The notes: a model not told the origin generated them from the sequence alone. 64,000 bases of DNA from an uncultured Coriobacteriaceae bacterium (GCA_964510125.1 CAZEAF010000001.1:2362-66361), one strand, 5' to 3'. Positions 3,906-46,608 are shown, counted from the stretch's first letter. Program-made: numbers and translations.

Positions 3906-3977
3906 GTCGTCTCGGACATCGCCATCGTCGCAGGCCCGCCGGGCAGGGATGTGCGCCCGGGGGAGAAAGGAGGCACC

Positions 3978-4613
3978 ATGCAGGACCTCTCCGGGCAGGC
4001 GGCAGGACCGCTCGCCCCCAAGACCGTCGTCATGGACGAGGAGGTGCTGAGCCGTGCCCTCACGCGAATCGCGCACGAGATTCTCGAGGGCAACGACGGC
4101 GCCGAGGACCTCATCTTGGTGGGCATCGTGACCCGCGGCGAGCAGCTGGCCCGCCTCCTAGCCCAGCGCATCGATGAGATTGAAGGGGTCGAGGTCCCCC
4201 TGGGCTCGCTCGACATCAGCCTTTACCGCGATGACTTCGGCACCAGGCTGGCACCGGTGCTCCACTCCACCAGCCTGCCCGTCGACATAGAGGGCAAGCG
4301 GATTGTCCTCGTCGACGACGTCCTTTTCACCGGCCGCACCATCCGCGCTGCTCTGGACGCCCTCATGGACTTCGGCCGCCCCGCCTGCGTGCGCCTGGCC
4401 GTCGCGGTTGACCGCGGACACCGTGAGCTGCCCATCCGGGCCGACTACGTGGGCAAGAACGTCCCCTCGGCCCGCACCGAGACCGTCCGCCTGGCCCTGC
4501 CTCCCTTCGACGACCACGCGGCCGTGGAGATTTGGGACGCCCAGACCTGGAAGCAGTACAAGGCCCGCCGCGAGGCCGACCGCGGGGCCCTAGGGGGCGA
4601 GGCCGCATGCTGA
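3978..4613 (+). CDS. pyrR: bifunctional pyrimidine operon regulator / uracil phosphoribosyltransferase
   Basis: PRPP-binding loop IVLVDDVLFTGRT. ATG 3978 is preceded by GAAAGGAGG. First gene of the pyr operon. Confidence 0.9.
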   Translation: MQDLSGQAAGPLAPKTVVMDEEVLSRALTRIAHEILEGNDGAEDLILVGIVTRGEQLARLLAQRIDEIEGVEVPLGSLDISLYRDDFGTRLAPVLHSTSLPVDIEGKRIVLVDDVLFTGRTIRAALDALMDFGRPACVRLAVAVDRGHRELPIRADYVGKNVPSARTETVRLALPPFDDHAAVEIWDAQTWKQYKARREADRGALGGEAAC

Positions 4614-5542: not shown

Positions 5543-6824
5543 GGGCGCCCGGGTCGTGGACCCCCAGGCGGGCCTGGACGACATAAGGGACGTGCTCATC
5601 GGCGAGGACGGGACTATCGAGGGCGTGGAGGCCATCCCCGCAGCCGAGGGGGCCCAGGTCATAGACGGGGCCGGCAAGGTCCTCATTCCCGGGCCCCTCG
5701 ACATGCACGTGCACTTCCGCGACCCCGGCCAGGAGTACAAGGAGACCATCGCCGGCGGCGTCCGCTCGGCTGCCAAGGGCGGCTACACCGACGTCGCCAC
5801 CATGCCCAACACGGTGCCCGTCTGCGACACCGGCGCCGTCGTGACCTACCAGTATGAGAAGGCCCGCGAGGCCGGCCTTGCCCGCGTCCACCCAATAGGC
5901 GCCCTCACCATGGGGGAGAAGGGCGAGCAGCTGGCCGAGATTGGCGACATGGTGGATGCCGGGGCCGTGGCCTTCTCCGACGATGGGCATGGCGTCCAGT
6001 ACGCGGGCATCATGCGCACGGTCATGGACTACGTGGTCCAGTTCGACAAGGTCGTCATCTCCCACTGCCAGGACGACTCCCTGGTGGGCCATGGCGTCGT
6101 GAACGAGGGCCGGGCCTCCACCCGTCTGGGCCTTGCCGGCTGGCCCGCCCAGGGCGAGGAGATCCACATTGATCGCGACATCCGGCTCTCCGAGCTCACG
6201 GGCTGTGCCTTCCATGCCGCCCATGTCACCACCGCGGCCGGCGTGGAGATTGTCCGCCAGGCCAAGTTGCGCGGCGACGACGTGACCTGCGAGGTCTGCC
6301 CCCACCATCTCTTCCTCTGCGAGGACGACATTACCGACGCCTACGACACCAACTACAAGATGAACCCACCCCTGCGCACGGCCGAGGACGCTCAGGCCCT
6401 GCGCGAGGCCCTCTGCTCCGGCGAGATTGACTGCTATGTGACCGACCACGCCCCCCACGCCGCCCATGAGAAGGCCCTGGAGTTCGAGCGGGCCCCCTTC
6501 GGCATCATTGGCCTGGAGACCGCCCTGCCCCTACTGGTGACCAAGCTGGTGAACACGGGCCAGATGAGCTGGCAGCGCCTGGTGGAGGTCTGCTGCATCA
6601 ACCCCCGCAGCCGCTGCCGCCTGGACCCGGTCAGCATCGAGCGCGGCCGCGAGGCAACCCTGACCCTGGTCGACCCCCATGCGTCCTTCACGGTAACCGA
6701 GGACTTCCTGGCCGGCACCGCCAAGAACACCCCCTTCATCGGGACCGAGCTGGACGGGCGCGCCACCTGGGCCTTTGTGGCCGGAAAGCCAATTCTGGCC
6801 CACGGCGAGGTCGTCCAGGCCTAG
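5526..6824 (+). CDS. pyrC: dihydroorotase
   Basis: DMHVHFRDPG metal-binding motif and DHAPH. GGAGG lies 8 nt upstream of ATG 5526. Overlaps the pyrB end. Confidence 0.92.
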   Translation: MRYLIKGARVVDPQAGLDDIRDVLIGEDGTIEGVEAIPAAEGAQVIDGAGKVLIPGPLDMHVHFRDPGQEYKETIAGGVRSAAKGGYTDVATMPNTVPVCDTGAVVTYQYEKAREAGLARVHPIGALTMGEKGEQLAEIGDMVDAGAVAFSDDGHGVQYAGIMRTVMDYVVQFDKVVISHCQDDSLVGHGVVNEGRASTRLGLAGWPAQGEEIHIDRDIRLSELTGCAFHAAHVTTAAGVEIVRQAKLRGDDVTCEVCPHHLFLCEDDITDAYDTNYKMNPPLRTAEDAQALREALCSGEIDCYVTDHAPHAAHEKALEFERAPFGIIGLETALPLLVTKLVNTGQMSWQRLVEVCCINPRSRCRLDPVSIERGREATLTLVDPHASFTVTEDFLAGTAKNTPFIGTELDGRATWAFVAGKPILAHGEVVQA

Positions 6825-12293: not shown

Positions 12294-12545
12294 GGCCCTC
12301 TCTGTCCTGCGGCCGCCGCCCCGGCAGATGACTCTTTGGCAGGGCTTGTCAAGGGCCTAAATGCGGTTTTTTGATCCTAACAATTTTCCTAACAGTTTTC
12401 AGCTCGTCTCCATGCCCCCTCAAGCTGCGCTTTTGTCGTAGTGCGGGAGGGCATTTTGCCTGTGTGTTATCCGCTCTAAGCAATTGAGCAAAAAGTTGGG
12501 GACCGGGCCAGTTTGCTTGCTACCTTCGGGCAGAAGGAGGCAGGC

Positions 12546-13409
12546 ATGGCACAGGTATCCAAGGCGACCTATCGAGAAGCCCGCCGGCGAGCGGGAACGG
12601 CGGACGACATGCGGAAAGGGGGGCGTTGCGAGCGCATACTGGAGCGGCTCCGGCTGGACAAGGTGTCCAAGCCGGTTCTTGCGGCCCTGGTCATCCTCGC
12701 CCTCGCGGCGTTTGTCACGGGAGGCCTAGCCTCAATCATGGCCCTGAGGGACGCTGGTGTCTTTGGGGATGGAGGCGGGGGCTTTGCTGTTCTGCCCGCC
12801 TCCAGGTCGGCGAGCTCCCTGCAGGATGTCGGCGACGAGGCCACGGGGGGCGGGAACGAAGGGCCGGCTGACTCGGAGCAAGGGGAGGTCGAAGGGTCAA
12901 GCGAGGCATCATCGCAGGCAGAAGCAGGCGATGCGCCCGTCCAAAGCATAGACACGCCCGTCCAGAGCATAACCGTTGACGTGGACGGGGCGGTCGCGGT
13001 CCCGGGCGTCTATGTGCTCGCGCAAGGGGCGCGGGTCGTGGACGCCATCGTCGCCGCAGGCGGGCTGACCGAGGAGGCCGAGACCCTCTCCCTCAACCAG
13101 GCGGCGCCCCTGTCCGACGGGGCCAAGGTAGTGGTTCCTGCTCAGGGCCAGGAGGGCCCGGGCCTGGTGACGGAGGGCGGCGACCAGACCGTGAGCGCAG
13201 GTACTGGCATACAGACAGGCCTGGTCAACATCAACACCGCCGGCGCCGAGGAGCTCCAGACCCTGCCCGGGGTGGGGGAGGCAACGGCCCAAGCCATCCT
13301 GACCGAGCGGCAGGATGGCGGGCCCTTTGCCTCGGCCGAGGACCTCATGAGGGTGAGCGGCATCGGCGAGAAGAAGCTGGAGCGCCTCCTTCCCTACATC
13401 TGTGTGTGA
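12546..13409 (+). CDS. comEA: ComEA-family helix-hairpin-helix DNA-binding membrane protein
   Basis: N-terminal TM segment, a SLBB-like region, and C-terminal HhH repeats NINTAGAEELQTLPGVGEATAQAI...VSGIGEKKLERL. GAAGGAGG precedes ATG 12546. Confidence 0.85.
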   Translation: MAQVSKATYREARRRAGTADDMRKGGRCERILERLRLDKVSKPVLAALVILALAAFVTGGLASIMALRDAGVFGDGGGGFAVLPASRSASSLQDVGDEATGGGNEGPADSEQGEVEGSSEASSQAEAGDAPVQSIDTPVQSITVDVDGAVAVPGVYVLAQGARVVDAIVAAGGLTEEAETLSLNQAAPLSDGAKVVVPAQGQEGPGLVTEGGDQTVSAGTGIQTGLVNINTAGAEELQTLPGVGEATAQAILTERQDGGPFASAEDLMRVSGIGEKKLERLLPYICV

Positions 13410-13418
13410 GAACCGGCC

Positions 13419-15860
13419 ATGATTCGTCCGAATCCGACTCCGAAGGCAGAAGAGAGACTAATTCATATAAGGCGGGGCCACGACCCCTTGAGGCCGACCC
13501 TATCGCCCGCCTTGCTGGCTCTGGCCCTTGTCTGGGCTGGTCAGAGGCTTGCGGCAGCAGTCATGCTAGGGGAGTGGCCTGAGCTGTCAGATATGCTGTC
13601 TGCTTGTGGGGGAGCGACCCTTTCGGCGGGGCTGACGGTCTTGGCTGTCATCCTAATTGCAGCCATGGCGGTCCTCTGGGTCCAGGCCCACCGTAAGGCG
13701 GCTCTCGTCCTATGCCTGGGAACCGGCGCCTTTGTCCTTGGCCTCTTGTCCATGAGGCTGCACCTGCAGGCAGTGGAAGCCCAGGCTGACGTGGCGACAG
13801 CGTCGCCGGTCTCGTCATACACCCTGCTTGTGGAGACCGACCCCAAGCTATCCGACACGGGCAACCTGACTGCGCGGGCACGGCTGAGCGACAAGGGCGG
13901 CGTGGACCGGGGGACGGTCTGGGTCAGCGTCTCCCCGCAGGTCCAGGGAGCCGACCAGCTCAGAATGGGCAAGCTGGTCACCGCGGTCGGCCGCTGGGGG
14001 TCCCTCTCCGACGACGACTGGGGCCGGGACATGAGGGTTAGGGGCGTCTGCGCTTCCGTCCGTCTGTTCGCCATCGAGGACGCAGGCTGGCAGGCAGGGC
14101 CCCTAGGCTGGGTGCGCCGGCTGCGGGACGGCTTGCACGAGAGCTTAAACGCCCTTCCCTCTGACGACGGGCGGGCCCTGCTTGCGGGCGTCGTCCTGGG
14201 CTACCAGAGCGACGCAAGCGGGTCCCAGCTGCAAGGGGACTTTCAGACCCTGGGCCTCAGCCACCTGGTCGCGGTGTCGGGCTCCCATTTGGCCGTGGTC
14301 GCCGGGGTCGTCCTTGCCCTGGCGGGATCGGTGGGCGCGCGTCCTTGGGCCCGCTTCGCCGTCCTGGTGGCCTTGCTGTCCTTTTACGTGGTCCTGACCG
14401 GCTTGCAGGCCTCGGCCCTGCGGTCCTTGCTCATGCTGTCGTCGGCCCTGGTCGCAGGGCTTGCCCACCGGCGCAGCCACGCTCTGTCAGCCCTGTCCCT
14501 CTGCGCACTCTTCCTTTTGCTCTGCCGGCCCTCTATGGCGGGTGACCTTGGCTTCGGCCTCTCGGTCCTCTCGGTTCTGGGCCTGTGCGCCTTCGGGTCC
14601 TACGGCTGCGAGCTGGCCCGTCGTCTCATGGGACCGCGCTGCCCCCAGGCACTGCCCGATGCGGTAGCCATGACCCTGGTTGCCCAGGCCTTCACCCTGC
14701 CCCTGACGATTCCCGCCTTTGGCATGGTGTCCCTTCTCTCGCCTTTGGCAAACGCCCTGGTGGGACCCTTGGTGAGTGGGGCTCTGGCCTGCGGCCTTGT
14801 CTGCGTGCCCCTGGCCTCGCTGGTCCCGGCCCTGGCCCTGCCGCCCTACCTGCTGGCCAAGCTGGTCTGCCTCGTCTCGCACTTACTGGCTGGCGTTCCC
14901 TATGCGGCTGTGCCGATTGCGGCGAGCGGGCCCCTCCTCGCCTGCCTCCTCTTTGCCGCCTGCGCGGCAGTCTACCTCTTTTGGCCCCTGCCCTCGGGAC
15001 GCCGCCTTCGGATAGGCTCGATAGCCTGCCTCACCTGCGTATTTGTCGTCCTCAACGTGTCCGTCCTGCTCGCGCCCACCCGTGTTCTCATGCTCGACGT
15101 GGGTCAGGGAGACGCCATTCTGGTTCAGGACGGACCCCACGCCATGCTGGTAGACACGGGGCCCGACGAGGCGGTGGTGCAGGCTTTGGGCAGGGCGCGC
15201 GTGGCCCGCCTTGACGCCGTCCTGCTCACCCATACCGACGCCGACCACGTGGGGGGCCTCGACGACATGGTCGGCCTGGTGGGCGTCTCACGCATCGTGG
15301 TGGCCCAGGGTGTCTGGGAGAGCGTTCAGGCAATCGACCCGGATTTGGAGCAGGCGATCCTTGCCACCGGGGGCCAGGTCGTGAGCGTGAGCGCCGGCGA
15401 CTGTATTCAGCTGGGGTCCTACACGCTCGAGGTCCTTTGGCCGACCAAGCCGGTGGAGGGGAATAGCAACGACCAGTCCCTGGTCTGTCTGCTCAGCCGG
15501 CCTGAGCGCGAGGGGCAGTTCTCCATGCTCCTCACAGGCGACGCCGAGGACGACGTGGTCAGCCGGCTCGTGGCCCAGGGGGCCGTGGGCGACATAGACG
15601 TGCTCAAGGTGGGCCACCATGGGTCGGCGGTCTCGATATCCCCCGAGACCATGCAGTCCTTGGCGCCCGAGGCGGCCATTGTAAGCGCGGGCCAGGGCAA
15701 CCGTTACGGCCATCCGCGCGAGGAGTGCCTGGACGTGCTCGAGCAGGGAGGGGCCGCCGTCTGGTGTACCATCTGGTGTCAGGACATCGACGTGCGCCTG
15801 AGCGAGAGAGGCTATGAGATTCTCAGCTCCGGCCAACCTGAACAGGCTCGGGCGCCATAA
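13419..15860 (+). CDS. comEC: ComEC/Rec2 DNA internalisation channel with C-terminal metallo-beta-lactamase domain
   Basis: 813-aa polytopic protein. MBL motif LLTHTDADHVGG and VGHHGS. Confidence 0.88.
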   Translation: MIRPNPTPKAEERLIHIRRGHDPLRPTLSPALLALALVWAGQRLAAAVMLGEWPELSDMLSACGGATLSAGLTVLAVILIAAMAVLWVQAHRKAALVLCLGTGAFVLGLLSMRLHLQAVEAQADVATASPVSSYTLLVETDPKLSDTGNLTARARLSDKGGVDRGTVWVSVSPQVQGADQLRMGKLVTAVGRWGSLSDDDWGRDMRVRGVCASVRLFAIEDAGWQAGPLGWVRRLRDGLHESLNALPSDDGRALLAGVVLGYQSDASGSQLQGDFQTLGLSHLVAVSGSHLAVVAGVVLALAGSVGARPWARFAVLVALLSFYVVLTGLQASALRSLLMLSSALVAGLAHRRSHALSALSLCALFLLLCRPSMAGDLGFGLSVLSVLGLCAFGSYGCELARRLMGPRCPQALPDAVAMTLVAQAFTLPLTIPAFGMVSLLSPLANALVGPLVSGALACGLVCVPLASLVPALALPPYLLAKLVCLVSHLLAGVPYAAVPIAASGPLLACLLFAACAAVYLFWPLPSGRRLRIGSIACLTCVFVVLNVSVLLAPTRVLMLDVGQGDAILVQDGPHAMLVDTGPDEAVVQALGRARVARLDAVLLTHTDADHVGGLDDMVGLVGVSRIVVAQGVWESVQAIDPDLEQAILATGGQVVSVSAGDCIQLGSYTLEVLWPTKPVEGNSNDQSLVCLLSRPEREGQFSMLLTGDAEDDVVSRLVAQGAVGDIDVLKVGHHGSAVSISPETMQSLAPEAAIVSAGQGNRYGHPREECLDVLEQGGAAVWCTIWCQDIDVRLSERGYEILSSGQPEQARAP

Positions 15861-16876
15861 TGGTGGCAGACAGGAGAAAGGCGGGACCGATGGCAGAGCA
15901 GATGGAGACAGGCAGGGGAGGGCTCCTGCCGGCCTACCTCATCGTCGGCCCTGACCGGGTCAAGGCTCGCGCCGCCTTGGAGCGCCTACGCAAGAGGCTG
16001 GCCGCCTCGGGGGAGCCCGAGTTCAACTCCGAGGAGTTCTCGGGGTCCGCCCTGCCCGACCCGGCCTCCCTGAGGGCGTCACTGGACACCCTGCCCTTTG
16101 GCGGGGACTTTCGTCTGGTGGTCATCGAGGGTGTGGACAAGGCGGCCAAGGCTGCGACCGAGATGCTGGTCGACTACCTGGCCGACCCCTGCCCCACGAC
16201 AGTCGTGGCCATGACGGCGGAAAAACTTGCCAAGACCACCCGCCTTTACAAGGCTGTCGACAAGGTGGGAGACAAGGCCGTCATCTCCTGCGAGGCTCGC
16301 AAGCGCCGTGACCTACCCGAGTTGGTGGCCCGCATGGCCCGCCAGGCCGGCTCCGACATCGACCCTGCGACCGCCGACCTGCTGGTCCAGCTGGTGGGTG
16401 AGTCGACCGAGATGCTGGAGAACGAGGTGGGCAAACTGGCTCTGGCATCGGGCGGCGGTCCCATAACCGAGCGGCTGGTGAGGGCCAACGTGGCAAGAAT
16501 CGCGCAGGTCAAACCCTGGGACCTGCTCGACGCCGTGTCCAAGCGCGAGCCTGCCGAGGCCATGCGCCTGCTGCGCCTCATGCCCGCCCAGGGCCTGGTA
16601 GGCCTGCAGGTGCTTCTGGTTAGCCGGATTCGCCACCTCATCGCGGCCAAGTCCCTGTCCCGGAGGGGTCAAGCGGCGAACCTGGCCCAAGAGCTGGGTC
16701 TGCAGGGCTGGCAGGTCAGGAACTTCCCAGCCTGGGCCCGCAACTACACGATGGGGGAGCTAGTGGGCGCCCTACGCGGTGCCTGCGCCTGTGAGGCCGC
16801 CCTCAAGTCGACTCCCGACAAGACCCTGGCCCTGCAGAGGTGGATTCTCTCCTTCTGCACGCCCAGGCGCGCCTAG
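15860..16876 (+). CDS. holA: DNA polymerase III subunit delta
   Basis: Conserved position after comEC; AYLIVGPDRVK N-terminus. TAATG stop/start overlap with comEC. Alternative start at ATG 15890. Confidence 0.78.
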   Translation: MVADRRKAGPMAEQMETGRGGLLPAYLIVGPDRVKARAALERLRKRLAASGEPEFNSEEFSGSALPDPASLRASLDTLPFGGDFRLVVIEGVDKAAKAATEMLVDYLADPCPTTVVAMTAEKLAKTTRLYKAVDKVGDKAVISCEARKRRDLPELVARMARQAGSDIDPATADLLVQLVGESTEMLENEVGKLALASGGGPITERLVRANVARIAQVKPWDLLDAVSKREPAEAMRLLRLMPAQGLVGLQVLLVSRIRHLIAAKSLSRRGQAANLAQELGLQGWQVRNFPAWARNYTMGELVGALRGACACEAALKSTPDKTLALQRWILSFCTPRRA

Positions 16877-16887
16877 CAATATGTCAG

Positions 16888-16925
16888 CAAAAAGCGGGCC
16901 CGATGGATGACCATCGGGCCCGCTT
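16888..16925. terminator. bidirectional rho-independent terminator between holA and rpsT
   Basis: Perfect 13-bp stem AGCGGGCCCGATG / CATCGGGCCCGCT (16893-16924). It is flanked by AAAAA on the plus strand, which gives a U-tract for minus-strand rpsT. Confidence 0.75.
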
Positions 16926-16948
16926 GGCAAACGTATGAGGCCGGGAGA

Positions 16949-17215
16949 CTAGGCAGCGATCTTGTTGACCAGCTTCTGCACGCCGGACTTGCGGTTGGCG
17001 GCCTGGTTCTTGTGGATGATGCCCTTGGCGGCGGCGTGATCGAGGAGCTTATAAGCCCTGGAGACGCGCTCCTGGGCCAGGTCGACGTCGCCGGCGGCGA
17101 CAGCCTGCTGGACGCGCTTGACCGCGGTCTTGAGCTCAGAGCGGACGGCCTTATTGCGCAGGCGGGCCTTCTCGTTCTGCTTGTTGCGCTTAATCTGAGA
17201 CTTGATGTTTGCCAC
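16949..17215 (-). CDS. rpsT: 30S ribosomal protein S20
   Basis: [26 protein letters not shown] start. Confidence 0.95.
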
Positions 17216-17425
17216 TTGAGACGATTCCCTTCAAAATCCCGTGCTTATAGAGGCCGCAGGTACCTGCGCCAGTAACCTTCGTACGCGACGGATACCTGCG
17301 CTCCTGCAAATCAAACCATGACATTCTATCATTGTTTCAATCATTGTGTGCGACGAGATATCATCTGCGCTCATCTTGTCAACATACCTACATCAGCGCA
17401 CCCCATACCTCACCCATACGTTATC

Positions 17426-19243
17426 ATGCGTCCCATGCCTACAGACACGCCAGACTTCATCAGAGACTTCTCGATTATCGCCCATATCGATCACGGGAAG
17501 TCGACCATAGCCGACCGCATCCTCGAGCAGACGCACACGATTGCCGAGCGCGACATGGAGAGCCAGATACTCGACTCGATGGACATCGAGCGCGAGCGCG
17601 GCATCACCATCAAGAGCCAGGCGGTCCGTGTCATGTACAAGGCCGACGACGGCAACACCTACCAGTTCAACCTCATAGACACCCCCGGCCACGTTGACTT
17701 CTCCTACGAGGTGTCGCGGTCCCTGGCCGCCTGCGACGGGGCTGTGCTGGTCGTGGACGCCACCCAGGGCGTGGAGGCCCAGACGGTCTCCAACGCCATC
17801 CTGGCCATGAACGCCAACCTGGAGGTCGTGCCGGCCATCAACAAAATCGACCTGCCCAGCGCCGAGCCTGAGCGCGTCAAGCAGGAGATTGAGGACGGCC
17901 TGGCCATCCCCTGCGACGACGCCTGCCTTGTGTCCGGTAAGACCGGCATCGGCATCCATGACCTGCTGGAAACCATCGTGCAGGACATCCCAGCCCCCTC
18001 GGGCGACCCGGACGCGCCTCTTAAGGCCCTCATCTTCGACTCCTACTTCGACGCCTACCGCGGCGTGGTTGCCCTGGTTCGCGTCGTGGACGGCCGCCTT
18101 TACACCAAGCAACGCATCAGGTTCATGGCCAGCGGCATGACCATCGAGGTCGAGGAAGTCGGCGTCCGCCGGCCGGCCGAGACCCCCCTGGCTGACCTGG
18201 GCGTCGGCGAGGTCGGCTACCTGGTCACGGGCGTCAAGGACCCCCTGCAGATCCGCGTGGGCGACACGGTGACCGACGCCTCCCACCCGGCCGCGGAGCC
18301 CCTGCCCGGCTACCGCGAGGTCAAGCCCATGGTTTTCACTGGCCTCTTTCCGGTGGACACTGCGGACTTCGACAACCTGCGCGACGCGCTCGATAAGCTC
18401 TCCCTCAACGACCCGGCCATCGTCTACGAGCCTGAGACCTCGGTGGCCCTGGGCTTCGGCTTCCGGACAGGCTTTCTGGGCCTGCTCCACATGGAGGTCG
18501 TCAAGGAGCGTCTGGAGCGGGAGTTTGACCTGGACCTCATCGCCACGGCCCCCTCGGTCCGCTACCGGGCCTACCTGCATGGGGGCTCGGTCGCAGACGT
18601 CAAGTCGCCCCAGGACATGCCCGACCCCGCCTCAATCGACCGCATCGAGGAGCCCTACCTGAAGGTCAAGGTCCTGGTCCCTCCTGACTATGTGGGCGCG
18701 GTTATGGACCTCACCATCGAGCACCGCGGCACCTTCGAGGACATGGTCTACCTGTCCGAGACCAACGTCGAGATGCACTGGTCCATGCCCCTGTCCGAGC
18801 TCATCATGGACTACTTCGACCAGCTTAAGAGCCGTACCCGCGGCTATGCCTCGCTGGACTACGAGCTGTCCGACTACCGGCCTGGCGACCTGGTCCGCCT
18901 CGACATTCTTTTGGCCGGCGAGAAGGTAGACGCCCTGTCCTTCATCGTCCACCGCGGCAAGGCCCAGTCCCGTGGCCGCGTCCTGTGCCAGAAGCTCAAG
19001 GAGATCATCCCCCGCCAGCAGTACGAGATTGCCATCCAGGCGGCCATCGGCGGTCGCGTGATTGCCCGCGAGACTGTGCGGGCCCTGCGCAAGGACGTCC
19101 TGGCCAAGTGCTATGGCGGCGACATCACCCGCAAGCGCAAGCTGCTGGAAAAGCAAAAAGAGGGCAAGAAGCGCATGAAGGCTATCGGTTCGGTCGACGT
19201 GCCCCAGGAAGCCTTCATGGCCATCCTCAAGGTCGACGAGTAG
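17426..19243 (+). CDS. lepA: translation elongation factor 4
   Basis: [28 protein letters not shown] and the LepA C-terminal domain. The start (17426 or 17435) is uncertain. Confidence 0.95.
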
Positions 19244-19246
19244 CCA

Positions 19247-20254
19247 ATGCCCTCCCCAAGCGCCCTCACGGCCCTCAACGCCGGCTGGCTGGCACAGCAC
19301 CCCTTCCGCCTGGCTCCCATGGCCGGCATCACCGACGCTGTCTACCGGGGCATGTACCTGGAGCGGGGCTGCACCCTGGCCTATACCGAGATGGTGTCTG
19401 TCGCCGGCATCATGTACGGCAGCGCCCAGACCTGGCTTTTGGTCGACCCCGGCCAGGACGAGGATAGGGTGGCTGTCCAGCTCTTCGGCAGCAGGCCCGA
19501 GCAGTTCTCATACGCGGCGGCAGGCTTGTGCGACAGGCTGGGCGACCGGCTGGCCCTCATCGACATCAACATGGCCTGCCCCATGCCCAAGGTCTTCAAA
19601 AAGGGGGAGGGCTGCGCCCTGATGGGCGACCCCGACCGGGCGGTCCGAATCTTGGAGGCCACCATCGACGGCTGCTCCGCCTCGGTGCCTGTGACCTGCA
19701 AGATTCGCCTGGGCATCCGCGAAGATGGCTTCCTGGCCCCCCGGTTTGCCCAGACGCTGGCCGAGCACGGGGCCAACGGGATTGCGGTCCACGGGCGCAC
19801 GGCGGGCCAGCTCTACCGGGGCCAAGCTGACTGGGACAAGATCGACCAGGTGGCGCAGGCCGTGGACATACCGGTCATGGGCTCGGGCGATATCATGACC
19901 CCCTCGGACGCGGTGGCCCGGCTGCAATCCAGTGCCGTCTCGGGCGTCCTGGTGGCCCGCGGGTCCTACGGAAGCCCCTGGTTTTTTGAGCGGGCCGAGG
20001 CCTTGCTTGCCGGGCGCGACCCCGGACCCGAGCCCTGCGTCTACACGCGCTTGGACGCCTTGCGCACCCACATCCGCCGCTATGCCAGAAGCGGCCGTCA
20101 CATGGCCCGCCTTCGCCCCCTGGTTGGCTGGTACGTCAAAGGCCTGCCGGCTGCCAGCGTCTGGCGGGGCCGGGCCAACCACTGCGAGAGCGAGGGCGAT
20201 TACCTAGCCCTGGTGGATGAGATGGAACGCACCTGCCAAGAGCGCGGCATGTGA
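19247..20254 (+). CDS. dus: tRNA-dihydrouridine synthase
   Basis: LAPMAGITDAVYR and NMACPMPKV (catalytic Cys) motifs. Confidence 0.87.
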   Translation: MPSPSALTALNAGWLAQHPFRLAPMAGITDAVYRGMYLERGCTLAYTEMVSVAGIMYGSAQTWLLVDPGQDEDRVAVQLFGSRPEQFSYAAAGLCDRLGDRLALIDINMACPMPKVFKKGEGCALMGDPDRAVRILEATIDGCSASVPVTCKIRLGIREDGFLAPRFAQTLAEHGANGIAVHGRTAGQLYRGQADWDKIDQVAQAVDIPVMGSGDIMTPSDAVARLQSSAVSGVLVARGSYGSPWFFERAEALLAGRDPGPEPCVYTRLDALRTHIRRYARSGRHMARLRPLVGWYVKGLPAASVWRGRANHCESEGDYLALVDEMERTCQERGM

Positions 20255-21564
20255 TGGCCGGGCAGCCCGCAGCCACCCCCGCAGGCCCTGGCGCACAGAC
20301 CCCACCGGCGCCGGAGAGCCCGGGTTTTGAGGCTCTCTACCTGCACATTCCCTTCTGCGCCCAGCGCTGCCGCTACTGCGACTTCACCACGGCCGCCATA
20401 CGCAAGGGCCATCCTCTCATAGGGGAATACCTCGAGGCACTCCTAGCCTGCCTTTCCCGGGTGTCTCGGGCAGGGCTCCTCTCCTGCGTGAGAACGGCCT
20501 ACATCGGCGGGGGGACGCCCACCATGCTGGGGGAGGGGCTGGTCCGCCTGGTGGCCGCCGTGCAGGAGGCCTGTCCTAGCATCCTCGAGCTTTCCTTCGA
20601 GGCCAACCCCGAGTCCCTGACCCCAGGCCTGGCGCGGGACCTGTCCGCAGCCGGCGCCACCCGGGTCTCCCTGGGCGTCCAGAGCCTGGTAGACGCCGAG
20701 CTCAGGGCCCTTGGCCGCATCCACGACGCCGCTCGAGCCAGGGATGCGGCAGGCTGGGCGGTGGACGCGGGCCTAGACCTCTCCTGCGACCTCATGTGCG
20801 GTATTCCCCTGCAGACCCCGGAGTCCTTCGACAGGTCACTTGCGGGCGTCCTGGCCGCCGGGGCAGGGCATGTGAGCGTCTATCCTCTCATGGTCGAGGA
20901 GGGCACACCCCTGGCCGCCGATTGTGAGCGCGGGGATTTGGCCTATCCCGACGAGGACCTGCAGGCATCCCTCATGGAGCAGGCTGCGCGGACCCTGGGG
21001 ACGGCGGGCCTTTCCCGTTACGAGGTGGCCTCCTACGCCCTTCCCGGCAAGAGCTGCGCCCACAACGTGGCCTACTGGACGGGCAGAAGCTACCTGGGCT
21101 TGGGCACCGGGGCCTCCTCCATGATGACGCCGGGGGAGTTCGACCAGCTGAGGGCCGCCATCCCCATGGAGGCCGTGCCCGAGGAGGACGAGACTCTGGA
21201 CCAGGTGGCATGGGACCGCGCCGCCCGGGTCCGCCTCTCCGTATGCGCCGAATCGGACGTCTTTGCCCAGCTCGTGAGGGCTGGACAGCCTGTGTGCATC
21301 AAGACCGAGACCCTGTCGGCCCGGGAGGCCCTGGCAGAGGATCTCATGCTGGGCATGCGCATGACGAAAGGGGTGCCGGCCTTCCTCTTGGACCGGGCCC
21401 GCGGCCTCATCCCCCTAGAGCAGCTGGACAAGGCCCTCAACCAGGTCGTCTCCCGCGGCCTGGCGTTTCTGGGGTCCGACGGGGGCCTGGTCCCCACCCA
21501 GCAGGGCTGGCTTTTGGGCAACGAGCTCTACGGGACCCTCTGGGACCTAGCCCACGGCGGATGA
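20251..21564 (+). CDS. hemW: radical SAM heme chaperone / oxygen-independent coproporphyrinogen-III oxidase-like
   Basis: LYLHIPFCAQRCRYCDF radical-SAM cluster motif. Conserved lepA-hemN/W neighbourhood. Overlaps the dus stop. Confidence 0.85.
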   Translation: MMAGQPAATPAGPGAQTPPAPESPGFEALYLHIPFCAQRCRYCDFTTAAIRKGHPLIGEYLEALLACLSRVSRAGLLSCVRTAYIGGGTPTMLGEGLVRLVAAVQEACPSILELSFEANPESLTPGLARDLSAAGATRVSLGVQSLVDAELRALGRIHDAARARDAAGWAVDAGLDLSCDLMCGIPLQTPESFDRSLAGVLAAGAGHVSVYPLMVEEGTPLAADCERGDLAYPDEDLQASLMEQAARTLGTAGLSRYEVASYALPGKSCAHNVAYWTGRSYLGLGTGASSMMTPGEFDQLRAAIPMEAVPEEDETLDQVAWDRAARVRLSVCAESDVFAQLVRAGQPVCIKTETLSAREALAEDLMLGMRMTKGVPAFLLDRARGLIPLEQLDKALNQVVSRGLAFLGSDGGLVPTQQGWLLGNELYGTLWDLAHGG

Positions 21565-21608
21565 GCGTTTGATGGGGGTGACAGGACGGCCTCCCGCATG
21601 GATAGAAT

Positions 21609-22772
21609 ATGACCAACGCGGCGCACCTGCCTGCGCCAGTCCCCGACCATGAGACGCGAGCTGCGACATTGGCTTCATCCACGAAGGACTACTACGACAT
21701 CCTGGGCGTCCCCAAAGACGCGTCCACCGACGACATCAAGCGGGCCTTCCGCAACAAGGCGCGCACGATGCATCCCGACGTGAACAAGGCGCCGGACGCT
21801 GAGGAGCGCTTCAAGGAGGTCTCAGAGGCCTACGAGACCCTGTCCGACCCCACCAAGCGGTCGCGCTACGATGCCTTGAGGTCGGGGCAGTTCACCACCC
21901 AGAACCCCTATGCCTCAAGCCCCTCCGGAGGGGCCTCCACCGCAGGTGCCGGCGGATTTGACGGCTGGCCCTTCGGTTGGCCCTTCAGCCCCTTCGGCAG
22001 TCCCTTCGCTGGCGCGTCCACGGCCGGCGGCAGGTCGGCGCGGGGCACGGCCCCCTTTACGAGCGAGCCCGGGGCGACCCGCCGCATCAACATGACCCTC
22101 ACTAGGGATGAGGCCCGTCAGGGGGCCAAGAAGACCGTCACCTTCGAGCGCTTCGAGCGCTGCGAGACCTGTGAGGGCCGCGGTGCGCGCAGCTCCTCAG
22201 ACGTGGCCACCTGCCCCACCTGCCACGGAAGCGGCAAGGTCACCGCCCGTATCCAGACGTTCATGGGCGACGCCGTCCAGACCGTCAAGTGCCCCGAGTG
22301 CTCGGGCTCGGGCAAGGTCATAACCAACCTCTGCCCTAACTGCTCGGGCTCGGGCACCCATCTCAGGCGGGCTACGGTCACCATCGACATCCCGGCCGAC
22401 TCCCATGACGGTGGCTCCCTGGTCGTGGAGGGGGCGGGTGACGCGGGCCGCAACGGCGGGCGCGTGGGCAACCTCCTCGTGGAGTTCACCGTGCCCTCCG
22501 AGCACCTGACCCACAATCAGGAGATTGCCTTCACGGGCCTGGGCATCGTGCTCTCGCTGGTCCTGTGTACGGTCTTCTTCAACACTATCCTGCGCATCCT
22601 CACCTTCTTCGCTCTGCCCCTCTTCTTCCTCTTCCTCATGGTCCCCATGGGTGGCCGCAAGCGGGGAGGCAGCTTTGCCAACCGGGCTGCCAGGCGCGTG
22701 GGCTTTGGCATGCTCATCGGTCTGTTTTTGTTTATCCTGTTCATTCCTTTCAGCTCGTTCTTGGCTTTTTAG
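21609..22772 (+). CDS. membrane-anchored DnaJ paralogue (J domain + G/F region + 4x CxxCxGxG zinc finger + C-terminal TM helices)
   Basis: DYYDILGV...MHPDVN (HPD motif). Zinc fingers [32 protein letters not shown]. The last 85 aa or so are hydrophobic ([19 protein letters not shown]..., [35 protein letters not shown]). An in-frame TTG at 21669 is an alternative start. Confidence 0.8.
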
Positions 22773-22837
22773 TAACCAGGGCGAGGATGAGGGTATAAGG
22801 TCGCTTGCGACGGCAGAGGCGAGGAGACGGACTGTTC

Positions 22838-23962
22838 ATGGCTCAGACCAAAGACTATTACGCAATCCTGGGCGTAGACCGGGCGGCAAGCGGGGAGGAC
22901 ATACAGCGTGCCTTCCGCAAGAAGGCCGTGGCCCTGCACCCCGACGTTAACAAGGCGCCGGACGCCGAGGAGCGTTTCAAGGAGGTCAACGAAGCCTACG
23001 AGGTCCTCTCCGATGAGAAGAAGCGGGACTTCTACGACCGTTACGGCACCGTGGACGGCTACGGCCAGGGCATGCCCGACATGGGCGACATCTTTGGCGG
23101 CTTCGATATGAGCGACCTCTTCAGTGCCTTCTTCAACGGCGGGGCTTCCACGGGTGGCCGCGCCGCACGGACTGAGGGCCGCGACATGGGCGCCCAGATT
23201 CGCGTCAGCCTGGCCGACGCTGCCGTGGGCGTCTCCAAGCAGATTGCCTACAACCGCCTGGCTACCTGCGATGCCTGCAAGGGCACAGGTTGCGCCGACG
23301 GGGGCCACCAGGTCAGCTGCCGCACCTGCCACGGGTCTGGTCAGGTGGTGACCACCCAGCGCACCCTGCTCGGTCAGATGCAGACCAGGTCGGTATGTCC
23401 TGACTGCGGCGGCTCCGGAACGGTCATCGACCACCCCTGCCCTGAGTGCGACGGCCAAGGTCGCGCCCCCGAGCGCGAGCGCGTCTCCGTGGACATTCCC
23501 GCCGGCGTGCGTGACGGCCAGCAGCTGAGGGTCGACGGCAAGGGCGAGGCCGGCCTGCGCGGGTCCCACTCCGGCGACCTGATTGTGACCGTGATTGTTG
23601 ATGGGGACGAGTCCTTCCAGCGCGACGGGGACGATTTGCACGTCCGCGTGGAGGCCTCCATCACCCAGGCCGCCCTGGGCGCCACCGTCACAATCGACGG
23701 CATCCTGCCTGACGAGACGGTGGACATCCAGGTCCCCGCCGGCTGCCAGACCGACCAGGTGGTTCGGGTGCGCAAGCAGGGCATGCCCCGCCTGGGCCGC
23801 AGCGACCGGGGCGACCTTTTCGCCCATATCGACGTCGTCGTGCCCAAGTCGCTCACGTCCGAGCAGCGCGAGCTTTTGGAGAAGCTGTCGGCGACCCTGG
23901 ACGACGCCGAAAACAAGCCCCGCCGCACCCCCTGGCAGCGTCTGCGCGACGCCCTCTCCTAA
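22838..23962 (+). CDS. dnaJ: molecular chaperone DnaJ (canonical type I)
   Basis: Full J domain, G/F region, 4 zinc-finger motifs, CTD I/II and dimerisation tail. Confidence 0.95.
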
Positions 23963-23974
23963 GGCAGGGCGCCT

Positions 23975-25444
<1,470 letters not shown>

Positions 25445-25541
25445 TAAACTGCATCTTCGGTCCAGACCCCCGACTTGGCGGCAAGCGCCACACACTACCG
25501 CTCGGCTGGGGGCGTCTTCAACAACAGTGGAGGAAATAGCA

Positions 25542-25817
25542 ATGATTACCAAGGAACAGCGCGCCCAGATTGTCGCCGAGTATGGCAAGGACGAGCACGA
25601 TACCGGCTCCTCGAACGTCCAGGTCGCCCTGCTCACGGCCCGCATCAAGGACCTGACCGAGCACATGAAGCGCAACCCCAAGGACTTCCACAGCCGCCGC
25701 GGCCTGCTCATGCTGGTCGGCCAGCGCCGCCGCCTGCTCGTCTACATCCGCAACCACGACATCAACGAGTACCGCGAGCTCATCGCCCGCCTGGGTATCC
25801 GCGACAACATCCAGTAG
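25542..25817 (+). CDS. rpsO: 30S ribosomal protein S15
   Basis: MITKEQRAQIVAEYGKDEHDTGSSNVQVALLTARIKDLTEHMK. GGAGGAAA precedes ATG 25542. Confidence 0.96.
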   Translation: MITKEQRAQIVAEYGKDEHDTGSSNVQVALLTARIKDLTEHMKRNPKDFHSRRGLLMLVGQRRRLLVYIRNHDINEYRELIARLGIRDNIQ

Positions 25818-25825
25818 TTTGGCAT

Positions 25826-25850
25826 GGGGGACGGGAAACCGCCCCCTTTT
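25826..25850 (+). terminator. rho-independent terminator/attenuator after rpsO
   Basis: GGGGGACGG-gaaa-CCGCCCCC hairpin (one bulged A) followed by TTTT. Confidence 0.6.
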
Positions 25851-25932
25851 CGTCGGGGCGTCTGATTCCCAGGAGGGTTCAGGCGCCCTCGCTCGTCAGG
25901 GGAGACGGTCTTCCCTGCACAGCCAAAGGCAG

Positions 25933-25956
25933 CCCGTCGGCAATGGGGCCGACGGG
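25933..25956 (+). promoter_or_regulatory. perfect 9-bp stem hairpin in the pnp leader (candidate processing/autoregulation element)
   Basis: CCCGTCGGC-aatggg-GCCGACGGG lies 12 nt before the pnp start region. Confidence 0.45.
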
Positions 25957-25967
25957 GATCGAGGAGA

Positions 25968-28259
25968 ATGGTTTTCAGCATGGCAAAGGTAACACACGAG
26001 TTCGACCTCTATGGCAAACACTACGTGCTCGAGACCGGTGAGCTCGCCAAGCAGGCCACGGGCGCCGTCCTCGTCAAGCAGGGCGACACGACAATCCTGC
26101 TCACGGTCGTCGTCTCCAAAGAACGCAAAAACTACGACTTCTTCCCGCTCACGGTCGACTTCCAGGAGCGCATGTACTCCGTGGGTCGCATCCCCGGCGG
26201 CTATCTCAAGCGCGAGACCCGTCCCACGGACAAGGCCACGCTCACGGCCCGCATGATCGACCGTCCCATCCGCCCCTCCTTCCCGGACGGCTTCCGCAAT
26301 GAGGTCCAGATTGTCGCGACATCCCTGGTGTGCGACCAGGTGAATCCCTTCGACGTCATCTGCACCATGGGCGCATCGGCCGCCATGTACGTGGGCGGCG
26401 TGCCCTTTGAGGGTCCCCTGGCCTGCGTTCGCATCGGCCGCGACCGCGACACCCAGGAGTTCATCGTCAACCCCACCTACACCGAGCAGGACAACTCCGA
26501 CCTTGACCTGGAGCTGGCCGGCACCGGCGACTTCATCTCCATGGTGGAGGCCGGCGCGGAGGAGATTTCCGAGGAAGACATGCTGGCCGCCATGCAGTTC
26601 GGCCAGCAGGCCATCGGCGCCTTCTGCGAGCAGCAGAACATCTTCTTCGAGAAGGTCGCCCAGGCCAACGGGCCCATCCTCAAGAAGGAGTACGTGCTCG
26701 ACGAGCCCAGCGCCTATGTGCACAACAAAGTGTTCGCCCACCTCGACCAGATGAGCGCCGCCCTCAAGGACCCCGACAAGCTGTCCCGCATGGGCAAGGT
26801 CGACGAGCTCAAGGCCTCCATCGTGGCCGAGTTCACCGACGAGGAGCAGGCCCAGTTCGAGCGCGAGCTGCCCGTCGAGCTCAAGAGCCTTGAGAAGCAC
26901 GCCATGCGCCGCATGGTCGTCGAGACCGGCGAGCGCGTGGACGGCCGCACGCCCACCGAAATCCGCCCCATCATGGTCAAGCCCGACTACCTGCCCCTGG
27001 TCCACGGCTCCGGCCTCTTCCAGCGTGGCCAGACCCAGGTCCTGTCGGTGCTCACGCTCGGCATGCTCAACGAGTGGCAGCGCTTCGACACCATCGAGCC
27101 CATCGACGGCAAGCGCTACATTCACCAGTACAACTTCCCGCCCTACTGCACCGGCGAGACCGGCCGCATCGGCGCCCCCAAGCGCCGCGAGATTGGCCAT
27201 GGCGCCCTGGCTGAGCGCGCCTTGCGCCCGGTCATCCCCTCTGAGGACGAGTTCCCCTACACCATCCGCGTCGTCTCCGACGTCATGGAGTCCAACGGCT
27301 CCTCGTCCATGGCTTCCACCTGCGGCTCCACCCTCGCCCTCATGGACGGCGGCGTGCCCATCAAGCGACCCGTCTCCGGCATCGCCATGGGTCTGATTCA
27401 AGAGGAGGGCAAGACCGTCATCCTGTCCGACATCCAGGGCCTGGAGGACTTCCTGGGCGACATGGACTTCAAGGTGACGGGCACCTCCAAGGGCATCACG
27501 GCCATGCAGATGGACAACAAGGCCACCGGCCTCACCTTCGACATCCTGTCCCACGCCCTGGCCCAGGCCAAGGAGGGCCGCGCCTTCATCCTCGACAAGA
27601 TGCTGGCCGCCATCGACGCCCCCCGCACGCAGATCCGCGAGAACGCGCCCCACATCATCACCATCCACATCCCCACGGACAAGATCCGCGACGTCATTGG
27701 GTCCGGCGGCAAGACCATCCGCGGTATCCAGGAGGACACGGGCGCCCAGATCGACATCCAGGAGGACGGCACCGTCTACATCGGCGCGACCGACTCCGGC
27801 GCCGAGGAGGCCCGCGCCCGCATCGAGGCCCTGGTCAAGGTCCCCGAGGTGGGCGAGGAGTACCACGGCCGCGTCGTGGGCATCCAGCCCTTCGGCGCCT
27901 TTGTTGAGCTCCTGCCCGGCAAGGACGGCCTGCTCCACATCAGCCGCGTCGCCAAGGGTCGCGTCGACAAGGTTGAGGACGTACTCAACGTGGGCGACGA
28001 GGTGCACGTCAAGATCATCGACGTGGACGAGAAGGGCAAGGTCTCGCTCGACCGTCTCGACAAGCCCGAGGCTCCGGAGCATTCCGGCGGGCACCGTCCC
28101 GAGCGCTCCGACCGCCGCGGCGAGGGCAGCTCGCGCTATGAGGGCGGACGCAACCCTCGCCGTCCTGGCGACCACGGCATGGGCGCCCGCTCCTCCTATG
28201 ACAAGGACGACGAGCCGGCTATGCCCCAACGTACCCCGCGCCGTCATCACGAGGGCTAA
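25968..28259 (+). CDS. pnp: polyribonucleotide nucleotidyltransferase (PNPase)
   Basis: Two RNase PH domains, KH and S1 domains, with a basic/acidic C-terminal tail. Alternative start at 25980. Confidence 0.96.
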   Translation: MVFSMAKVTHEFDLYGKHYVLETGELAKQATGAVLVKQGDTTILLTVVVSKERKNYDFFPLTVDFQERMYSVGRIPGGYLKRETRPTDKATLTARMIDRPIRPSFPDGFRNEVQIVATSLVCDQVNPFDVICTMGASAAMYVGGVPFEGPLACVRIGRDRDTQEFIVNPTYTEQDNSDLDLELAGTGDFISMVEAGAEEISEEDMLAAMQFGQQAIGAFCEQQNIFFEKVAQANGPILKKEYVLDEPSAYVHNKVFAHLDQMSAALKDPDKLSRMGKVDELKASIVAEFTDEEQAQFERELPVELKSLEKHAMRRMVVETGERVDGRTPTEIRPIMVKPDYLPLVHGSGLFQRGQTQVLSVLTLGMLNEWQRFDTIEPIDGKRYIHQYNFPPYCTGETGRIGAPKRREIGHGALAERALRPVIPSEDEFPYTIRVVSDVMESNGSSSMASTCGSTLALMDGGVPIKRPVSGIAMGLIQEEGKTVILSDIQGLEDFLGDMDFKVTGTSKGITAMQMDNKATGLTFDILSHALAQAKEGRAFILDKMLAAIDAPRTQIRENAPHIITIHIPTDKIRDVIGSGGKTIRGIQEDTGAQIDIQEDGTVYIGATDSGAEEARARIEALVKVPEVGEEYHGRVVGIQPFGAFVELLPGKDGLLHISRVAKGRVDKVEDVLNVGDEVHVKIIDVDEKGKVSLDRLDKPEAPEHSGGHRPERSDRRGEGSSRYEGGRNPRRPGDHGMGARSSYDKDDEPAMPQRTPRRHHEG

Positions 28260-29384: not shown

Positions 29385-30389
29385 TCACCGGCGCCCCAAG
29401 ACGGCGTCCGCGCCACCGGCAAGGCCGCGGGCATCCGAGTCGGTATTGTCGGGCCGGTCGGGGGTGCCATGGCTGCCGGGGCGGCCGGGTTCTGCGGGCT
29501 TGAGGGCGACCAGCAGGGCCGCGCTGATGACGGCCTCAAGGGCAAAGGCGGCCACGGCAAGCGGCGTGAACCCGGGCGTCGCAACCAGCATGGCGTTGTA
29601 CCACATGTGCGAGAGGATGCAGCAGGCGACGCCCCCAGTCTGGGCCCTCACGAGGGCAAAGGAGTAGCTCAGGCAGACGCCCACCAGCAGGACCGACCAG
29701 AAGGGGACGGTCTGCTGAAAGGTCCCCGGCACAAGGAAGAGGGGCAGGTGCCAGAAGCCCCAGACAAGGCCGGTGGCCAGAGGGGCGAGCAAGCGGGCTC
29801 CCGCGGGCGAGACCCTGCCCTCATCGGACGTGTCGCAGGCACCTCCAAAAGCGCGCGTCAGGCAGGGCTCGAGGAAGCCTCGCCAGCCGACCTCCTCCAG
29901 GCCGCCCCCGAGAAGGAGGACCGGAAGGCCCGTCAGGAAGGACAAGGCCGCCACGCCCGGGCTCGAGGGAAAGCCGAAGACGAATGAGAACATGAGGTAG
30001 CGCCAGACGGCGAGGGCGAAGAAGACCAAAGCTGCCCGCCAACTCGGGCGCAGGCCGAACGCCGTCTTGGCAAAGGAGGCGGGGGCGATACCCGCCGCGG
30101 CCAGCCGCCCATGCAGGAAATAGGTCGCGAACATGGGTGCCAGGGTGCCCAGGACCAAGAAGATCGCCGCCCAGTCCCAGGCTGCCGACCCCTCGCCCCC
30201 GAGGACCCTCATGAGGCCGGCACAGAGCCAGGCAATCCAGGAGATTCCAAAGGTCAGGGCGGCATAGGCCCCGGCCAGTCCCAATGCCTGCCGAGCCGGG
30301 GTGGGGGAGTGGCGCCTCCGGCCCCCGTCCTTTGCCCGACCCCCACGTGCGCCCACCGTTCGCCCCCCTCGTTCGTGCTGCCTTTGCAT
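29385..30389 (-). CDS. CPBP-family intramembrane glutamic endopeptidase (CAAX protease-like)
   Basis: Polytopic protein with motifs EEVGWRGFL, FWHLP and HMWYN. Confidence 0.75.
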   Translation of the reverse strand: MQRQHERGGRTVGARGGRAKDGGRRRHSPTPARQALGLAGAYAALTFGISWIAWLCAGLMRVLGGEGSAAWDWAAIFLVLGTLAPMFATYFLHGRLAAAGIAPASFAKTAFGLRPSWRAALVFFALAVWRYLMFSFVFGFPSSPGVAALSFLTGLPVLLLGGGLEEVGWRGFLEPCLTRAFGGACDTSDEGRVSPAGARLLAPLATGLVWGFWHLPLFLVPGTFQQTVPFWSVLLVGVCLSYSFALVRAQTGGVACCILSHMWYNAMLVATPGFTPLAVAAFALEAVISAALLVALKPAEPGRPGSHGTPDRPDNTDSDARGLAGGADAVLGRR

Positions 30390-46602: not shown

Positions 46603-46608
46603 CCGACC

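Follow-up and report, generated by a model that had tools for sequence, protein, structure and literature searches.

A DnaJ-like protein with a predicted three-helix membrane anchor, encoded next to dnaJ in Coriobacteriales

We analysed a DNA stretch of 64,000 nucleotides from an uncultured Coriobacteriaceae bacterium (GCA_964510125.1 CAZEAF010000001.1:2362-66361), referred to as the window, which carries on its forward strand an open reading frame (ORF) at positions 21609–22772 encoding 387 amino acids from the ATG at 21609. An earlier sequence-only reading had reported this ORF as a membrane-anchored paralogue of DnaJ, and the ORF is indeed present as described; the label mDnaJ is used here for its product. 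The gene belongs to a region (12513–28259) with the order comEA-like gene, comEC, holA, rpsT (on the reverse strand), lepA, dus, hemW, mDnaJ, dnaJ, mtaB, rpsO and pnp, in which comEA and comEC were identified from their translations and from synteny rather than by profile scan. The gap between mDnaJ and the full-length dnaJ gene amounts to 65 bp and contains no terminator-like site. A scan of positions 19000–26000 for promoters and terminators gave nothing above shuffled expectation, and no such site separates hemW, mDnaJ, dnaJ and mtaB.

The true start of mDnaJ is probably the in-frame TTG at 21669 (MASSTKDYY..., 367 amino acids) and not the ATG at 21609, because the N-termini of most homologues inspected lie 4–8 residues ahead of the KDYY motif. 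Translation from the ATG (positions 21609–21671) appends about 20 residues without conservation, and residues 1–24 were not conserved and were modelled by AlphaFold2 with low quality. The parts of the protein and its nearest neighbours are compiled in Table 1.

Table 1. Parts of mDnaJ and adjacent genes in the window; residues are counted from the ATG at 21609.
Feature	Positions	Strand	Residues	Basis or remark
mDnaJ ORF	21609-22772	+	387 amino acids	From ATG 21609; stop codon 22770-22772
J domain	21687-21872	+	27-88	HPD at residues 55-57
Gly/Phe/Pro-rich linker (G/F region)	21873-22070	+	89-154	From the sequence; disordered in the model
C-terminal domain I (CTD-I), first strands	22071-22160	+	155-184	Pfam, AlphaFold2, Foldseek
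Zinc-finger-like region	22161-22355	+	185-249	Four CxxCxGxG motifs
CTD-I, remaining strands	22356-22493	+	250-295	Last canonical hairpin (HxxFxRxGxDL) missing
Conserved junction VPSEhLTxxQ	22494-22523	+	296-305	DnaJ homology stops and first helix begins
Predicted transmembrane helix TM1	22524-22580	+	306-324	Holds invariant G312
Predicted TM2	22587-22643	+	327-345	Tight hairpin with TM1
Basic loop	22644-22700	+	346-364	Family mean net charge +3.8; predicted cytoplasmic
Predicted TM3	22701-22769	+	365-387	G367xxxG371
hemW (radical-SAM haem chaperone family)	20251-21564	+		Domain and family profile scans; upstream neighbour in the window
Full-length canonical DnaJ (actinobacterial DnaJ2 position)	22838-23962	+		Profile scans; directly downstream of mDnaJ
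mtaB (tRNA methylthiotransferase)	23975-25444	+		Profile scans; comes after dnaJ

The sequence-only reading had assigned to the protein a J domain with the HPD motif, a G/F region, four CxxCxGxG motifs and part of CTD-I, and this domain content was borne out by Pfam, TIGR02349 and BLASTP. Pfam DnaJ (PF00226) matched residues 27–88 with an E-value of 3.5e-26 (91 bits) and DnaJ_CXXCXGXG (PF00684) matched residues 185–249 with an E-value of 2.1e-15 over profile positions 1–65 of 65. DnaJ_C was matched at profile positions 2–80 of 152 only (residues 159–302), leaving positions 81–152, the part representing CTD-II, unmatched. In the same way, the NCBIfam DnaJ equivalog model TIGR02349 was matched at positions 1–260 of 354 and left unmatched at 261–354, and mDnaJ scored 253 bits, below the cut-off of 377.2 bits, whereas the adjacent DnaJ matched the whole model with 388 bits. 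Judged from these profiles, mDnaJ is outside the DnaJ equivalog family: neither CTD-II nor a dimerisation domain is recognised and the TIGR02349 score lies under the cut-off. No model dedicated to mDnaJ was found in NCBIfam.

Pairwise comparison by BLASTP located the point at which DnaJ homology ends. mDnaJ shares 42% identity with the adjacent DnaJ across residues 23–299 and 37% identity with E. coli DnaJ, where residues 24–295 correspond to E. coli residues 2–250. Because both alignments stop at the same spot, mDnaJ residue 295–299, the break falls just before the last β-hairpin of CTD-I, at about residue 250 of E. coli DnaJ; the preceding part of CTD-I is documented by the DnaJ_C match and by a fold like that of Ydj1 and DnaJ. 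Past residue 299 nothing in mDnaJ could be aligned to the adjacent or the E. coli DnaJ, the dimerisation domain included. By alignment, then, mDnaJ is a protein without the last CTD-I hairpin, without CTD-II and without the dimerisation domain.

The retained parts are highly conserved. In an alignment of 118 mDnaJ sequences, the window protein among them, the HPD motif and the J-domain residues flanking it are invariant (118 of 118), as are all eight Cys residues of the CxxCxGxG motifs, and the motifs of CTD-I are conserved across the family. The linker between J domain and CTD-I is rich in Gly and Phe from about residue 95 to 150 and was modelled as disordered, with a predicted local distance difference test score (pLDDT) <50 over residues 99–144.

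In place of CTD-II and the dimerisation domain, mDnaJ ends in a tail of about 85 hydrophobic residues, as had been claimed and as profiles, BLASTP, an insertion energy sum and AlphaFold2 all confirm. A search of 5.8 billion clustered proteins yielded more than 100 full-length relatives of 358–395 amino acids with 38–68% identity, and the same type of tail closes every one of them but P0038, a frameshifted copy. The tail is in frame in each of the 117 further cluster representatives of the alignment, and an independent Logan assembly (run SRR10165007) yielded an identical mDnaJ protein. Over positions 22500–22800 the other two forward frames encode Ser/Pro/Arg-rich sequence and restore no DnaJ_C. 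P0038 and P0126, both from other metagenome assemblies, are frameshifted forms of the mDnaJ gene with the tail in the wrong frame or running past the stop; such errors were exceptional.

Several features of the tail recur throughout the 118-sequence alignment, among them the VPSEhLTxxQ junction and the basic loop between the second and third helix. G312 in the first helix is present in 118 of 118 sequences, and in the GxxxG motif of the third helix G367 is found in all 118 and G371 in 114. Just after the third helix, 115 of the 118 sequences carry a Cys. The window protein has Phe at this place and is the sole one to do so; its codon 384 (22758–22760, TTC) is one nucleotide away from TGC. The family Cys stands 4–20 residues from the C-terminus, not at the distance of a CaaX box, and the residues ahead of it fit a lipobox only loosely. 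The segment around it, consisting of the basic loop, about 19 hydrophobic residues and [LFM]-x-S-C, loosely resembles an internal lipoprotein signal with lipobox or, alternatively, a disulfide or acylation site.

Ratios of nonsynonymous to synonymous substitution rates (dN/dS, Nei-Gojobori) showed that the tail is under purifying selection, looser than in the rest of the protein, as expected for a membrane anchor. In close genome pairs dN/dS was 0.03–0.14 for the tail and 0.01–0.04 for the soluble part, and at 70–90% protein identity it was 0.2–0.5 and 0.1–0.2, respectively; these estimates rest on close pairs, distant pairs being saturated at synonymous sites.

A profile built from the tail alone matched 50 representative clusters among 1.84 billion. 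The full-length matches, and those of the shorter ones that were read, were linked to mDnaJ or DnaJ or were gene fragments, save for P0165, and the idea that the tail is a module common to other protein families was rejected on these grounds. P0165 is a metagenomic protein of 486 amino acids without a J domain, in which four hydrophobic-hairpin repeats share the motif ASGSWWQGTLDxFGVGFVVGGLVD; its match to the TM2-loop-TM3 part of the profile is weak (E-value 2e-5) and could reflect either distant kinship with the hairpin or similar composition.

The tail had been read as two or three transmembrane helices. Such helices are indeed predicted, and their number is three by both methods applied. 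A Hessa-type sum, which is a simple calculation and not a dedicated topology predictor, gave a negative insertion free energy for three segments of 19 residues, 306–324, 327–345 and 369–387; for the adjacent DnaJ the same sum found no negative segment, with a minimum of +9. AlphaFold2, supplied with the family alignment, produced a model with a mean pLDDT of 84, in which the J domain and the CTD-I/zinc-finger module were confident and the G/F region disordered. Its tail comprises three helices at residues 302–322, 324–344 and 356–386 (21, 21 and 31 residues) with block-mean pLDDT values mostly of 72–97, lowest in the loop at 341–360. A Foldseek comparison with the PDB related the soluble part to Streptococcus pneumoniae DnaJ, Ydj1 (1nlt) and DNAJA2 over CTD-I and the zinc finger.

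Across the family the loop between TM2 and TM3 has a mean net charge of +3.8, the turn between TM1 and TM2 consists of about 5 neutral residues and the stretch after TM3 is on average 11 residues long. These loop charges fit the positive-inside rule and a three-span topology with the N-terminus inside and the C-terminus outside. Since the J domain is necessarily cytoplasmic, the charges agree with a chain that starts inside, passes out and back as a hairpin, leaves the loop in the cytoplasm and places the C-terminus outside.

The distribution of mDnaJ was determined by scanning one genome per species with a profile consisting of the tail and the end of CTD-I. Relatives were confirmed in at least 252 species genomes, and the best 80 of these belong almost entirely to Coriobacteriales. 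They include named isolates or species (Atopobium minutum, A. fossor, Olsenella uli and other Olsenella, Lancefieldella parvula, Thermophilibacter, Olegusella and Kribbibacterium), genus-level records, some of them metagenome-assembled genomes (Tractidigestivibacter, Paratractidigestivibacter, Parolsenella and a Collinsella species), and many uncultured lineages; Parafannyhessea is also among the genera with mDnaJ. The gene order mDnaJ, full-length dnaJ, mtaB is found at nearly every related locus long enough to be judged, and at one locus (L054) dnaJ and mtaB are separated by about 1 kb of additional sequence. More widely, the related loci carry comEC, holA, rpsT, lepA, dus and hemW on one side and phoH, ybeY, dgkA, era, recO, rpsO and pnp on the other.

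Seven contigs filed under Acutalibacteraceae, Alistipes, Oscillibacter, Paludibacteraceae and Bacteroidaceae "cleanbin" genomes (L012, L015, L028, L039, L042, L046 and L060) also contain the mDnaJ-dnaJ-mtaB core, most of them with lepA, dus or hemW upstream and with 45–83% identity to the window. From their sequence, these Coriobacteriales-type loci in Bacteroidales or Clostridia bins have probably been mis-binned. In one uncultured Coriobacteriales genome (L005) two tandem copies of mDnaJ (3922–5088 and 5263–6384) precede dnaJ. The nucleotide sequences of the two tails are identical and the soluble parts differ, with equal proportions of nonsynonymous and synonymous differences (pN = pS = 0.062). 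This pair is due either to a recent duplication accompanied by gene conversion or to an error of assembly.

The origin of mDnaJ was examined by a neighbour-joining tree of 23 mDnaJ proteins and 22 adjacent DnaJ proteins (DnaJ2), calculated over 256 shared columns that begin with the J domain and run through CTD-I, and rooted with E. coli DnaJ; actinobacterial DnaJ1 was not part of the sample. mDnaJ and the adjacent DnaJ were reciprocally monophyletic in 100 of 100 bootstraps, and both clades showed the same basal split, separating the group of the window from the Atopobiaceae group, with broadly parallel topologies. Because the two clades are separate and share this split, the tree indicates that a single old duplication, predating the divergence of these lineages, gave rise to mDnaJ. 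Mean identity is 56% within mDnaJ and 66% within DnaJ2, hence mDnaJ evolves faster. Judged from adjacency, mDnaJ was likely derived from DnaJ2. A DnaJ duplication leading to DnaJ2 has been placed at the stem of Actinobacteria, with loss of domains later in some lineages; a membrane form is not mentioned in that study (PMC12799103).

The gene directly upstream of mDnaJ varies between genomes; it is hemW in the window, a tadA-like deaminase gene in three related loci (L002–L004) and a glutathione-peroxidase-like gene, an ABC-F ATPase gene or others elsewhere. In the Bacillus-type order hrcA, grpE and dnaK lie ahead of dnaJ, and in actinobacteria hrcA lies ahead of dnaJ2. The window keeps the Bacillus-type arrangement around the heat-shock operon minus hrcA-grpE-dnaK, and the sequence-only reading, which had placed mDnaJ in the "hrcA slot", was positionally right in this respect. 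Because the upstream neighbour varies, the term is to be taken as a positional analogy only with the Bacillus and actinobacterial orders.

As that reading had also stated, no HrcA was found in the window, neither among the ORFs scanned by profile nor among the remaining translations, which were unlike HrcA by reading. Likewise, no HrcA was recognised directly upstream of mDnaJ in relatives, judged by Pfam labels for L002–L004 and by reading the translations at the other loci. The controlling inverted repeat of chaperone expression (CIRCE), reported absent from the gaps flanking mDnaJ, was missing from these gaps and from the whole window, and it was not detected when 84 related loci (0.9 Mb) were searched with as many as 4 mismatches allowed. 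The HspR-associated inverted repeat (HAIR) was absent from the window and did not occur above chance in the 84 related loci at up to 2 mismatches. A literature search on HrcA in Coriobacteriia returned nothing relevant. Elsewhere in the window (46198–47337) a small ORF, FHA-like by reading, is followed by a regulator of the MerR family (MerR_1 match), the family to which HspR belongs. About 7 kb downstream of mDnaJ, on the reverse strand at 29385–30389, lies a gene for an Rce1-like intramembrane protease (CPBP, type II CAAX protease family).

mDnaJ was compared with the class A DnaJ proteins and with known membrane-bound J proteins. With class A DnaJ, represented by E. coli DnaJ and the adjacent DnaJ2, it shares the N-terminal J domain with HPD, the G/F linker, the four CxxCxGxG motifs and the CTD-I fold, but it belongs to a separate clade and has three hydrophobic helices where these proteins have the last CTD-I hairpin, CTD-II and the dimerisation domain. 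Yeast Ydj1 and human DNAJA1/2 are farnesylated. They would resemble mDnaJ as class A proteins with C-terminal membrane attachment, and the CTD-I/zinc-finger fold of mDnaJ is like that of Ydj1 (1nlt); unlike mDnaJ, they have retained CTD-II and the dimerisation domain, and their attachment is through a lipid carried by a CaaX box. No CaaX box is present in mDnaJ: the window protein ends with SSFLAF and the family Cys is followed by 4–20 residues.

Among the membrane-tethered J proteins of E. coli, DjlA works with DnaK and the tail-anchored DjlB and DjlC with HscC, the latter two being thought to act on membrane proteins (PMC8215388). DjlA would resemble mDnaJ as a membrane-tethered DnaK partner whose J domain faces the cytoplasm (PMC8215388); it differs by its single N-terminal transmembrane helix, its C-terminal J domain and the lack of a G/F region, zinc finger and CTD. 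The similarity of mDnaJ to DjlA is confined to the J domain and weak (31 bits by BLASTP; model NF006948, 19 bits against a cut-off of 162). DjlB and DjlC, which have been proposed as chaperones of membrane proteins, agree with mDnaJ, as predicted, in carrying the J domain at the N-terminus and a membrane anchor at the C-terminus (PMC8215388), whereas their anchor is a single tail helix instead of three predicted spans, a zinc finger and a CTD are missing and a specialised Hsp70 (HscC) is encoded nearby. Their sequences offered a marginal J-domain match of 28 bits for DjlB and none for DjlC (BLASTP), and nothing resembling an Hsp70 gene was recognised among those ORFs of the window that were scanned or read. 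By analogy, the front half of mDnaJ may come closest in its working to a class A DnaJ, and its tethering to DjlA/DjlC or farnesylated Ydj1.

We therefore favour, as probable, the interpretation that mDnaJ is a J-domain protein derived from class A DnaJ which is anchored in the cytoplasmic membrane by its three C-terminal helices and acts together with DnaK. The J domain, G/F linker, zinc-finger region and truncated CTD-I would lie on the cytoplasmic side, TM1 and TM2 would form a tight hairpin, the basic loop between TM2 and TM3 would return to the cytoplasm and TM3 would lead to a short C-terminus outside. The invariance of HPD and the J-domain surface argues that mDnaJ interacts functionally with an Hsp70, most probably DnaK, and the invariant zinc fingers together with the conserved CTD-I argue for client binding. 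The CTD-I/zinc-finger module would bind unfolded segments near the membrane, for which cytoplasmic parts of membrane proteins, insertion or secretion intermediates and membrane-proximal aggregates are possible sources. The HPD-containing J domain would then trigger ATP hydrolysis by DnaK and so concentrate Hsp70 action at the membrane, and the soluble full-length DnaJ from the adjacent gene would serve the bulk cytosol. mDnaJ may have a role in the quality control of membrane proteins. The invariant glycines, G312 in TM1 and GxxxG in TM3, suggest tight helix packing, which may replace the lost dimerisation domain. Published work on the cyanobacterium Synechocystis describes the J and G/F domains alone as able to sustain basic DnaJ function (PMC7609799).

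Some observations weigh against this interpretation. The last CTD-I hairpin is absent and client binding may be altered by its loss. The genes dnaK and grpE lie outside the window, so that DnaK is an assumed partner, and the mDnaJ locus has no heat-shock operator of the CIRCE or HAIR type. TM1 and TM2 are short and, in structural terms, could form a re-entrant hairpin instead of two full spans. The faster evolution of the tail is the pattern of a simple anchor and gives little support to a function beyond anchoring.

A more specific version of the favoured interpretation, which we put forward as tentative, sees mDnaJ as a dedicated co-chaperone of membrane proteostasis in Coriobacteriales: the tail would dimerise via its glycines and set the client module beside the insertion or quality-control machinery, and the Cys outside TM3 would be modified or disulfide-linked. 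If the tail does dimerise and the Cys is modified, mDnaJ would be a bacterial, protein-anchored counterpart of farnesylated Ydj1/DNAJA.

Among other explanations, mDnaJ might be a regulatory or sensor J protein which, like DjlA, uses DnaK at the membrane to tune signalling or stress responses, or which titrates DnaK in heat-shock control where the hrcA/CIRCE circuit is missing locally. DjlA reportedly has a signalling role. It also sets a precedent, being a J protein at the membrane whose activity depends on DnaK (PMC8215388), and both the absence of hrcA, CIRCE and HAIR at the locus, in the window as in the 84 related loci, and the conserved basic cytoplasmic loop with its GGSFW/RWWRNA motif agree with a regulatory function. 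We nevertheless regard such a function as unlikely: mDnaJ retains the zinc fingers and CTD-I, the client-binding equipment of class A which DjlA does not have, no sensor domain was found, the parts facing outside amount to just a few residues and no regulator gene is linked.

Very unlikely, in our view, is that mDnaJ serves as a membrane receptor for the adjacent soluble DnaJ, tethering part of the DnaJ pool as a hetero-oligomer. The genes adjoin at every locus, in the window across the short gap already described, and the phylogenies of mDnaJ and DnaJ2 are broadly parallel; however, tandem duplication alone accounts for the adjacency, and mDnaJ has lost CTD-II and the dimerisation domain, where class A proteins pair. 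Equally little credit is due to a DnaK-independent membrane holdase or thiol-active zinc-finger protein with a vestigial J domain, comparable to the DnaJ-like zinc-finger membrane proteins of plants and algae such as ZnJ6. The four invariant CxxCxGxG motifs would suit such an activity, and ZnJ6 itself is a zinc-finger chaperone that associates with membranes and has redox activity (PMC7865324). Proteins of the ZnJ6 type are, however, without a J domain, and a vestigial domain would not keep HPD and its flanking residues in 118 of 118 sequences and a Pfam match of 91 bits. Finally, an artefactual tail, produced by frameshift, assembly error or decay of a duplicated dnaJ, is refuted by conservation and selection despite the frameshifted copies P0038 and P0126 and the missing near-invariant Cys of the window protein, as the tail keeps its frame in 117 further clusters and occurs in at least 252 species genomes, isolates included, has low dN/dS in close pairs, recurs identically in a second assembly and conceals no DnaJ_C in another frame.

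No description of a membrane-anchored class A DnaJ was found in the full-text literature searched, the principal overview of J-protein architectures in bacteria (Barriot et al. 2020) lying outside the searched texts. The earlier statement that no characterised example is known thus stands as far as a describing paper is concerned, but the gene is common and is annotated generically: members are labelled "DnaJ domain-containing protein" in RefSeq and UniProt (e.g. WP_090845778.1, WP_321970955.1 and A0A6N7X977). mDnaJ is a widespread, apparently unstudied variant within a well-known kind of protein. It is conserved in Coriobacteriales genera of the human gut, mouth and vagina and of the rumen (Collinsella, Olsenella, Atopobium, Lancefieldella and Parafannyhessea). 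J-domain proteins set where and on what Hsp70 acts. The known bacterial membrane J proteins DjlA, DjlB and DjlC offer a J domain only, whereas mDnaJ keeps the client-binding core of class A, and it would thereby constitute a natural test of what CTD-II and the dimerisation domain contribute and of how DnaK is used at the bacterial membrane.

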